Origin: Escherichia coli
GTDB lineage: Bacteria; Pseudomonadota; Gammaproteobacteria; Enterobacterales; Enterobacteriaceae
Assembly (NCBI RefSeq): GCF_003334335.1
Contig: NZ_QOWQ01000015.1
Strand: one strand, 5' to 3'
DNA: 64,000 nt
This document shows, one piece after another, positions 58,946 through 59,863 of the stretch. Position 1 is the first letter of the stretch. Each line of letters begins with the position of its first letter. A model generated the notes under the pieces. It was given only the letters and a program-made list of their open reading frames with translations. It did no database searches and had not been told where the DNA came from. The position numbers and the translations under genes are program-made.

Positions 58946-59863
58946 ATGAATATTCGTGATCTTGAGTACCTGGTGGCATTGGCTGAACACCGCCATTTTC
59001 GGCGTGCGGCAGATTCCTGCCACGTTAGCCAGCCGACGCTTAGCGGGCAAATTCGTAAGCTGGAAGATGAGCTGGGCGTGATGTTGCTGGAGCGGACCAG
59101 CCGTAAAGTGTTGTTCACCCAGGCGGGAATGCTGCTGGTGGATCAGGCGCGTACCGTGCTGCGTGAGGTGAAAGTCCTTAAAGAGATGGCAAGCCAGCAG
59201 GGCGAGACGATGTCCGGACCGCTGCACATTGGTTTGATTCCCACAGTTGGACCGTACCTGCTACCGCATATTATCCCTATGCTGCACCAGACCTTTCCAA
59301 AGCTGGAAATGTATCTGCATGAAGCACAGACCCACCAGTTACTGGCGCAACTGGACAGCGGCAAACTCGATTGCGTGATCCTCGCGCTGGTGAAAGAGAG
59401 CGAAGCATTCATTGAAGTGCCGTTGTTTGATGAGCCAATGTTGCTGGCTATCTATGAAGATCACCCGTGGGCGAACCGCGAATGCGTACCGATGGCCGAT
59501 CTGGCAGGGGAAAAACTGCTGATGCTGGAAGATGGTCACTGTTTGCGCGATCAGGCAATGGGTTTCTGTTTTGAAGCCGGGGCGGATGAAGATACACACT
59601 TCCGCGCGACCAGCCTGGAAACTCTGCGCAACATGGTGGCGGCAGGTAGCGGGATCACTTTACTGCCAGCGCTGGCTGTGCCGCCGGAGCGCAAACGCGA
59701 TGGGGTTGTTTATCTGCCGTGCATTAAGCCGGAACCACGCCGCACTATTGGCCTGGTTTATCGTCCTGGCTCACCGCTGCGCAGCCGCTATGAGCAGCTG
59801 GCAGAGGCCATCCGCGCAAGAATGGATGGCCATTTCGATAAAGTTTTAAAACAGGCGGTTTAA
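58946..59863 (+). CDS. oxyR: LysR-family hydrogen-peroxide-sensing regulator OxyR
   Basis: ORF track 58916..59863; start moved to ATG 58946 ([40 protein letters not shown]..), 305 aa. Confidence 0.95.

Follow-up and report, generated by a model that had tools for sequence, protein, structure and literature searches.

The convergent pairs oxyR/sthA, frwD/yijO and uspD/fpr of Escherichia coli are probably ordinary compact junctions, in which transcripts end within the partner gene at stem-loops or Rho sites, RNase III cuts the complementary ends, and the overlaps arise as by-products. Two features of the oxyR/sthA junction are new in this analysis; the 18-bp overlap is frozen in 72 of 79 species by the invariant C-terminus of SthA, and a hairpin at the 3' end of the sthA mRNA, encoded within oxyR, shows constraint on the synonymous sites of oxyR. 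For precisely these three pairs, the overlaps themselves, read-through, dsRNA and regulatory speculation are in the literature already, and as a discovery the junctions carry little weight, since the Term-seq and strand-specific RNA-seq proposed in an earlier note on this DNA have been done and published.

Within the window, i.e., the whole stretch of 64,000 nucleotides analysed here, the coordinates given for the three junctions in the earlier note proved exact to the base when compared with the ORF lists, the sequence and the MG1655 RefSeq annotation, which also carries the gene names used in that note. The CDS of oxyR (58946-59863, plus strand, 305 aa) and sthA, also named udhA (59846-61246, minus strand, 466 aa), have 18 bp in common (59846-59863, both strands), corresponding to the last five codons and the stop of oxyR, while frwD (47471-47812, plus strand, from its annotated start) and yijO (47799-48650, minus strand) have 14 bp in common (47799-47812) with offset frames. 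Both are convergent overlapping CDS pairs, sharing at least one 3' base, which uspD (13626-14054, plus strand) and fpr (14059-14805, minus strand) are not, as a 4-bp gap (14055-14058) separates their stops. The frames of oxyR and sthA lie in the same codon register, and the TAA stop of either gene is the complement of a TTA leucine codon in its partner. Due to this reciprocal TTA/TAA arrangement, the stop codon of oxyR lies within a perfect 12-bp palindrome, CGGTTTAAACCG (59856-59867), although the palindrome is too short for a useful hairpin. The longest oxyR ORF begins at 58916, 30 nt upstream of the annotated start at 58946, and it is the annotated start that agrees with the conserved N-terminus used for finding orthologues. 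Of 5426 complete E. coli genomes queried with 2.4 kb covering oxyR-sthA, every one carried the locus. A mis-called stop or reading frame in each pair, with no real overlap, would be a trivial explanation, but we found no evidence favouring it; the stop codons are unambiguous in the sequence, the RefSeq annotation agrees with the ORF calls and both C-termini of each overlapping pair are length-conserved across genera. We consider such an annotation artefact effectively refuted.

Orthologous loci were collected by scanning one genome per species, and OxyR at ≥90% identity recovered 80 loci from about 35 genera of Enterobacteriaceae plus Pantoea, 79 of which were usable. sthA converged on oxyR in all 79, and the overlap was exactly 18 bp in 72 of them. 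Six species (Enterobacter soli, Pluralibacter gergoviae and four Buttiauxella) showed an overlap of 27 bp, where the OxyR TAA had changed to CAA or CAG and three amino acids were added up to the next stop, and a single MAG, whose OxyR is shortened, had the genes abutting without a gap. The C-terminus of SthA (...LNRLF) was invariant except for a final W in Pseudocitrobacter, and variation within the overlap was confined to third codon positions of sthA, which correspond to first codon positions of oxyR; the OxyR tail varied as K-(Q/K/E)-A-(V/I) with SthA unchanged, and the OxyR residues directly upstream of the overlap were hypervariable. Judged from this comparison of sequences, the shared 18 bp evolve as sthA coding sequence with the OxyR tail passively dictated, and the length of the overlap is fixed because the coding constraint on SthA sets the shared bases. 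The last residues of OxyR, LKQAV, and its stop are nothing but the complement of SthA ...LNRLF and its stop, and a mutation of the OxyR TAA would let translation continue to the next complement of a leucine codon, giving the 27-bp overlap.

The frwD/yijO overlap was likewise of the same length, 14 bp, in Salmonella, Citrobacter, Enterobacter and Edwardsiella tarda (five genera with E. coli), although both protein tails vary and the genes beyond yijO differ. No Term-seq 3' ends are listed within about 250 bp on either side of this junction (PMC7815308), and neither the frwD nor the yijO 3' extension folds better than shuffled sequence.

According to the MG1655 annotation, the window contains ten convergent junctions, nine of them between two CDS, with gaps of 105 bp (yiiM/cpxA), 54 bp (cdh/tpiA), 4 bp (uspD/fpr), 84 bp (zapB/rraA), 60 bp (rpmE/yiiX), 26 bp (yijE/yijF), -14 bp (frwD/yijO), 54 bp (argH/oxyS), -18 bp (oxyR/sthA) and 39 bp (yijD/trmA). 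All ten were scanned for terminators by an RNAfold-based search for a hairpin followed by a U tract, with positive controls from the window. Of the seven junctions with 26-105 bp between the genes, five had a terminator-like hairpin in the gap, whereas the same scan detected none in the junctions of oxyR/sthA, frwD/yijO and uspD/fpr, and the claim that these three have no room for an intergenic terminator is thus correct. Around the same junctions, a consensus promoter and terminator scan gave nothing above shuffle expectation and Rfam returned no family. Huvet and Stumpf (2014; PMC4161906) counted 75 convergent pairs with overlapping CDS in E. coli K-12, and two in about nine convergent pairs are therefore unremarkable; a hand-computed binomial gave a probability of about 0.28 for at least two overlaps among nine pairs, using the published 75 over a genome total of about 600-650 convergent pairs that is itself an estimate extrapolated from the nine CDS-CDS pairs of this window. 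Hence, the overlapping ends in the window are not beyond chance expectation.

Several other elements were observed in the course of these scans. The yijD/trmA gap itself holds a strong hairpin (62594-62621), yet Term-seq places a plus-strand 3' end at 62723, after a hairpin (62688-62723) inside and antisense to trmA, so that a transcript can end in its convergent partner even where there is intergenic room. Rfam matches elsewhere in the window were naRNA4 in the yiiM/cpxA convergent gap (3843-3920, minus strand), two copies of ES036 (8925-8966, minus strand, and 28319-28360, plus strand) and a cobalamin riboswitch cut by the window end (63840-64000, plus strand). The ppc-argE intergenic region (53679-54148) carries a REP/BIME-like 123-bp tandem repeat of 3.8 copies with 98% identity, one unit more than in MG1655, which shows that the window, although E. 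coli, does not come from MG1655.

That transcripts from these junctions read into the opposite gene was also claimed in the earlier note, which named 3' ends within the coding regions upstream of the overlap as the observation that would contradict it. Adams et al. (2021; PMC7815308) mapped 3' ends by Term-seq and Rho regions with bicyclomycin, and their sthA, fpr and uspD ends lie 45, 126, and 75 nt past the respective stops, inside the coding region of the partner gene; read-through therefore stands for oxyR/sthA and uspD/fpr, while for frwD/yijO it relies on RNA-seq coverage in the excludon catalogue only. Rho termination regions are reported at 59965 and 14133 on the plus strand and at 59471 and 13909 on the minus strand (PMC7815308). 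The catalogue in question, obtained with ExcludonFinder (Sanmartin et al., 2025, NAR; PMC12288877), names all three pairs among 165 convergent excludons of MG1655, where a pair is called when its transcripts overlap in half or more of 58 transcriptomes, and its members mostly have their terminator inside the transcription unit of the neighbour. It also remarks on the link of uspD-fpr to oxidative stress, and reports that excludon pairs in aggregate show less frequent single-cell co-expression and higher synteny (PMC12288877). For udhA/oxyR, a 3' overlap of 12 nt was given together with the suggestion of transcriptional regulation between both genes (Partipilo et al., 2022, JBC; PMC9460512); the published 12 nt would equal our 18 bp if the two stop codons were excluded. 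In vivo overlap of the mRNAs, as in convergent excludons, is accordingly found for the pairs on published data (Term-seq, operon map and dsRNA, and catalogue coverage for frwD/yijO).

The 3' end of the sthA mRNA was mapped to 59801 on the minus strand in LB at OD 0.4 and 2.0 (about 78,000 and 55,000 reads, respectively), 63 nt into oxyR, and was classed as 'primary sthA, antisense oxyR' (PMC7815308). This end sits 5 nt past a hairpin of the sthA 3' UTR, GGCCAUCC-N10-GGAUGGCC (59806-59831, minus strand; dG -15.1 kcal/mol, z -2.2), with an 8-bp stem whose arms are the oxyR codons for (E)AIR and MDGH, about codons 283-293. The hairpin is a near-perfect inverted repeat and folds on both strands. 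Its tail, UCUGC, has no U tract, and the sthA end is thus not an intrinsic terminator of the hairpin and U tract type. The Rho termination region for sthA read-through, at 59471 (minus strand, score 5.8; PMC7815308), is located 375 nt past the sthA stop and 330 nt beyond the 3' end. Taken together, the tail lacking a U tract and the Rho region 330 nt further on suggest that the sthA transcript is terminated by Rho and then trimmed by exonucleases as far as the hairpin.

The synonymous variability of the hairpin arms was 0.068 compared to 0.30 in 160 other conserved-residue codons of oxyR (p = 0.002), and none of 83 oxyR windows of the same geometry was equally low. Against 36 controls with the same majority codon, the arms showed a variability of 0.04-0.09 versus 0.33 (p = 0.0004). 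In an alignment of 54 species, the hairpin pairs formed in 92.6% of cells versus 21-50% in slid controls, the structure having been derived from the E. coli sequence and then checked in the other species. Compensatory changes were identified from A-U to G-C in Kluyvera and Ent_R1/Dryocola, and from C-G to U-A in Kosakonia oryzendophytica and Silvania; in every case, one arm carries an amino acid change of OxyR and the opposite arm a synonymous one. The double-sided changes amounted to three pairs and seven cells, which none of 500 shuffles reached, although one slid control (+3) scored similar covariation. The hairpin was degraded in Pantoea, and RNAalifold on a 99-column alignment of the sthA 3' region gave a weak alternative structure without recovering it. 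Selection on the hairpin is likely but not proven.

On the other strand, the oxyR extension (59861-59970) folds with a dG of -36.9 kcal/mol (z -3.9) into two hairpins antisense to the C-terminal codons of SthA (59876-59956, plus strand), which stop shortly before 59965, where oxyR read-through has its Rho termination region (plus strand, score 5.1, 102 nt past the oxyR stop; PMC7815308). Term-seq mapped no plus-strand 3' end for oxyR (PMC7815308). The two hairpins were 94.6% paired across species solely through one-sided, wobble-compatible changes and with no double-sided change, and since every pair varies on one side only, covariation is uninformative here; the constraint on the SthA protein is explanation enough for the pairing.

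At uspD/fpr, a strong minus-strand 3' end at 13933, inside uspD, has three entries over the three conditions, two of which give about 50,000 reads (PMC7815308), and presumably represents the end of the fpr mRNA. The uspD 3' end at 14129 (plus strand), inside fpr, was found in LB at OD 2.0 only (PMC7815308) and follows a strong hairpin with a weak UCUUU tail, antisense to the C-terminal codons of Fpr (14085-14125, plus strand, dG -20.8 kcal/mol), making it a borderline intrinsic terminator. As the UspD protein query reached almost only E. coli variants and paralogues, Fpr was used as query instead. Four genera (Salmonella, Klebsiella, Kosakonia and Enterobacter) have no yiiS-uspD between yiiR and fpr. 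There, yiiR is the convergent partner of fpr, at a distance of 106 bp in Salmonella and directly abutting (0 bp) in the three others (L090-L092, positions 1947/1948), indicating that the 3' end of fpr lies close against any gene facing it. The 4-bp uspD/fpr gap was kept in one Escherichia-like contig of 86% DNA identity, and in our searches the adjacency appears only in E. coli and this one close relative; yiiS-uspD (about 13300-14054) looks like a recent insertion in the Escherichia lineage. Three of the genera lacking uspD are predicted to form a similar hairpin, likewise antisense to conserved C-terminal codons of Fpr, where E. coli has the one at the end of uspD (Klebsiella -22.5, Enterobacter -18.4 and Kosakonia -15.5 kcal/mol), and the hairpin is thus probably older than the uspD-fpr adjacency; Salmonella shares the UCUUU tail with these three genera and has a different fold. 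A paralogous DUF406+Usp gene pair with 57% identity adjoins sulfite-reductase-like genes elsewhere. The apparently recent origin of the adjacency weakens the argument that a stress gene and a redox gene were brought together by selection. Of the proposal that both oxyR-sthA and uspD-fpr join an oxidative-stress gene to a redox gene, the case is weak for uspD-fpr, where fpr faces yiiR in four genera; the oxyR-sthA adjacency is completely conserved, but its fixed overlap is explained by the coding constraint on SthA.

Double-stranded RNA has been captured at two of the junctions. Huang et al. (2020, mBio; PMC7373196) list an RNase III dsRNA cluster 'oxyR sthA, 3', convergent' (E-268, S-345), captured with p19 from 59568-59912, with a cross-reference to a 379-nt convergent overlap in the operon map of Conway et al., which corresponds to 59595-59974 in the window. 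A small dsRNA pair with low read counts was captured at uspD/fpr (14079-14100), and nothing is present for frwD/yijO in the same p19 list (PMC7373196), a capture that needs ectopic expression of p19. A second p19 cluster (E-269) is located at the 5' end of sthA (about 61057-61260), and an antisense TSS is listed by this cluster at about 61227 on the plus strand, which suggests a divergent 5' overlap of sthA and fabR.

These observations are compatible with a simple sequence of events at compact junctions. With no space left between the genes, either mRNA would run into the coding region of the partner and end there, at stem-loops which that region happens to encode; transcription itself is likely stopped by Rho further downstream, and the RNA then trimmed to the stem-loop. 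Both mRNAs in a pair would therefore be complementary, over at least 63 nt at oxyR/sthA according to Term-seq and 345-379 nt according to the dsRNA cluster and operon maps, and over about 197 nt at uspD/fpr, and could form duplexes that are cut by RNase III. The CDS overlap would be a by-product of the position of the stop codon, held in place by the coding constraint of the partner, and any effect of the overlaps on expression is probably small.

Alternatively, the pairs might be true excludons, i.e., selected devices by which transcribing one gene depresses expression of the other, with RNA polymerases colliding and RNase III cutting the duplex. OxyR, as regulator of the H2O2 response, would in this way be linked to the re-oxidation of NADPH by SthA, and likewise UspD to Fpr. 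We regard this as unlikely, although the presence of all three pairs in the published excludome with its lower aggregate co-expression and higher synteny (PMC12288877), the dsRNA cluster at oxyR/sthA (PMC7373196), the oxyR-sthA adjacency in 79 of 79 species, the synonymous constraint on the embedded sthA hairpin and the coupling already proposed in 2022 (PMC9460512) all speak for it. In contrast, protein changes in RNase III (rnc) mutants are modest, 0.65- to 1.4-fold among the entries seen, with a tentative assignment of these values to individual data sheets (PMC7373196), the uspD-fpr adjacency was found only in E. coli and one close relative, and the coding constraint on SthA fully explains the fixed oxyR/sthA overlap. 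OxyR is negatively autoregulated, which would buffer interference. Still, the kept oxyR-sthA adjacency and the constrained hairpin could reflect selected coupling rather than mere compaction. In particular, the hairpin may be a selected element that sets or protects the sthA 3' end or positions polymerase collisions, making oxyR-sthA a conserved cis-coupled unit in Enterobacteriaceae, a notion we consider unlikely.

The hairpin at 59806-59831 could also act as a collision-driven bidirectional terminator, pausing polymerases from both sides so that head-on collisions end both transcripts. The published model (Ju et al., 2019; Wang et al., 2022, bioRxiv 10.1101/2022.10.23.513370) needs a stem-loop where the convergent transcripts overlap, and both the foldability of the near-perfect inverted repeat on either strand and the sthA end without a U tract, unlike an intrinsic terminator, would fit. 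However, a plus-strand end at the hairpin would cut the oxyR mRNA 32 nt before its stop, and none is mapped there; moreover, Rho termination regions lie downstream on both strands, and the dsRNA cluster and operon map reach well past the hairpin on both sides, rendering this explanation improbable. Ordinary compact junctions thus remain our preferred explanation.

As such, oxyR/sthA is a clean worked example of overlap freezing, in which the invariant C-terminus of one partner dictates the tail of the other and loss of a stop codon simply extends translation to the next leucine complement. It also illustrates that the 3'-end hairpin of a gene can be built from the codons of its neighbour and may constrain the synonymous sites of that neighbour. 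Should the hairpin indeed be a selected element, the C-terminal coding region of OxyR would be doubly constrained, the last 18 bp by SthA codons and another 26 bp by the structure of the sthA 3' UTR, and the oxyR-sthA unit would tie the peroxide response to NADPH balance. The uspD-fpr pair serves as a warning against inferring function from adjacency, because we found the pairing only in E. coli and one close relative.

Compared to known systems, the convergent overlapping genes of prokaryotes (PMC4161906) likewise share a few 3' bases on opposite strands as a result of stop-codon movement, and oxyR/sthA and frwD/yijO are two of the 75 K-12 pairs, whereas uspD/fpr differs in having no shared bases; among such overlaps, the 18 bp of oxyR/sthA are unusually stable, with the same length in 72 of 79 species. 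With convergent excludons (PMC12288877), our pairs have in common that neighbouring genes produce overlapping 3' transcripts, but the mutually exclusive expression that is the defining feature there is putative here. Rho-terminated transcripts are known to be trimmed to a protective stem-loop (Dar and Sorek, 2018; Wang et al., 2019; both cited in Adams et al., 2021, PMC7815308), and the sthA end similarly lies 5 nt after a stable hairpin without a U tract and 330 nt upstream of a Rho region; in this case, the trimming is putative, and the hairpin differs in being made of the codons of the partner gene, with constrained synonymous sites. Finally, bidirectional terminators (Ju et al., 2019; Wang et al., 2022) also have their stem-loop in the overlap of convergent transcripts, while the oxyR/sthA element is located inside a CDS, has a mapped end on the minus strand only and is followed by Rho regions downstream.
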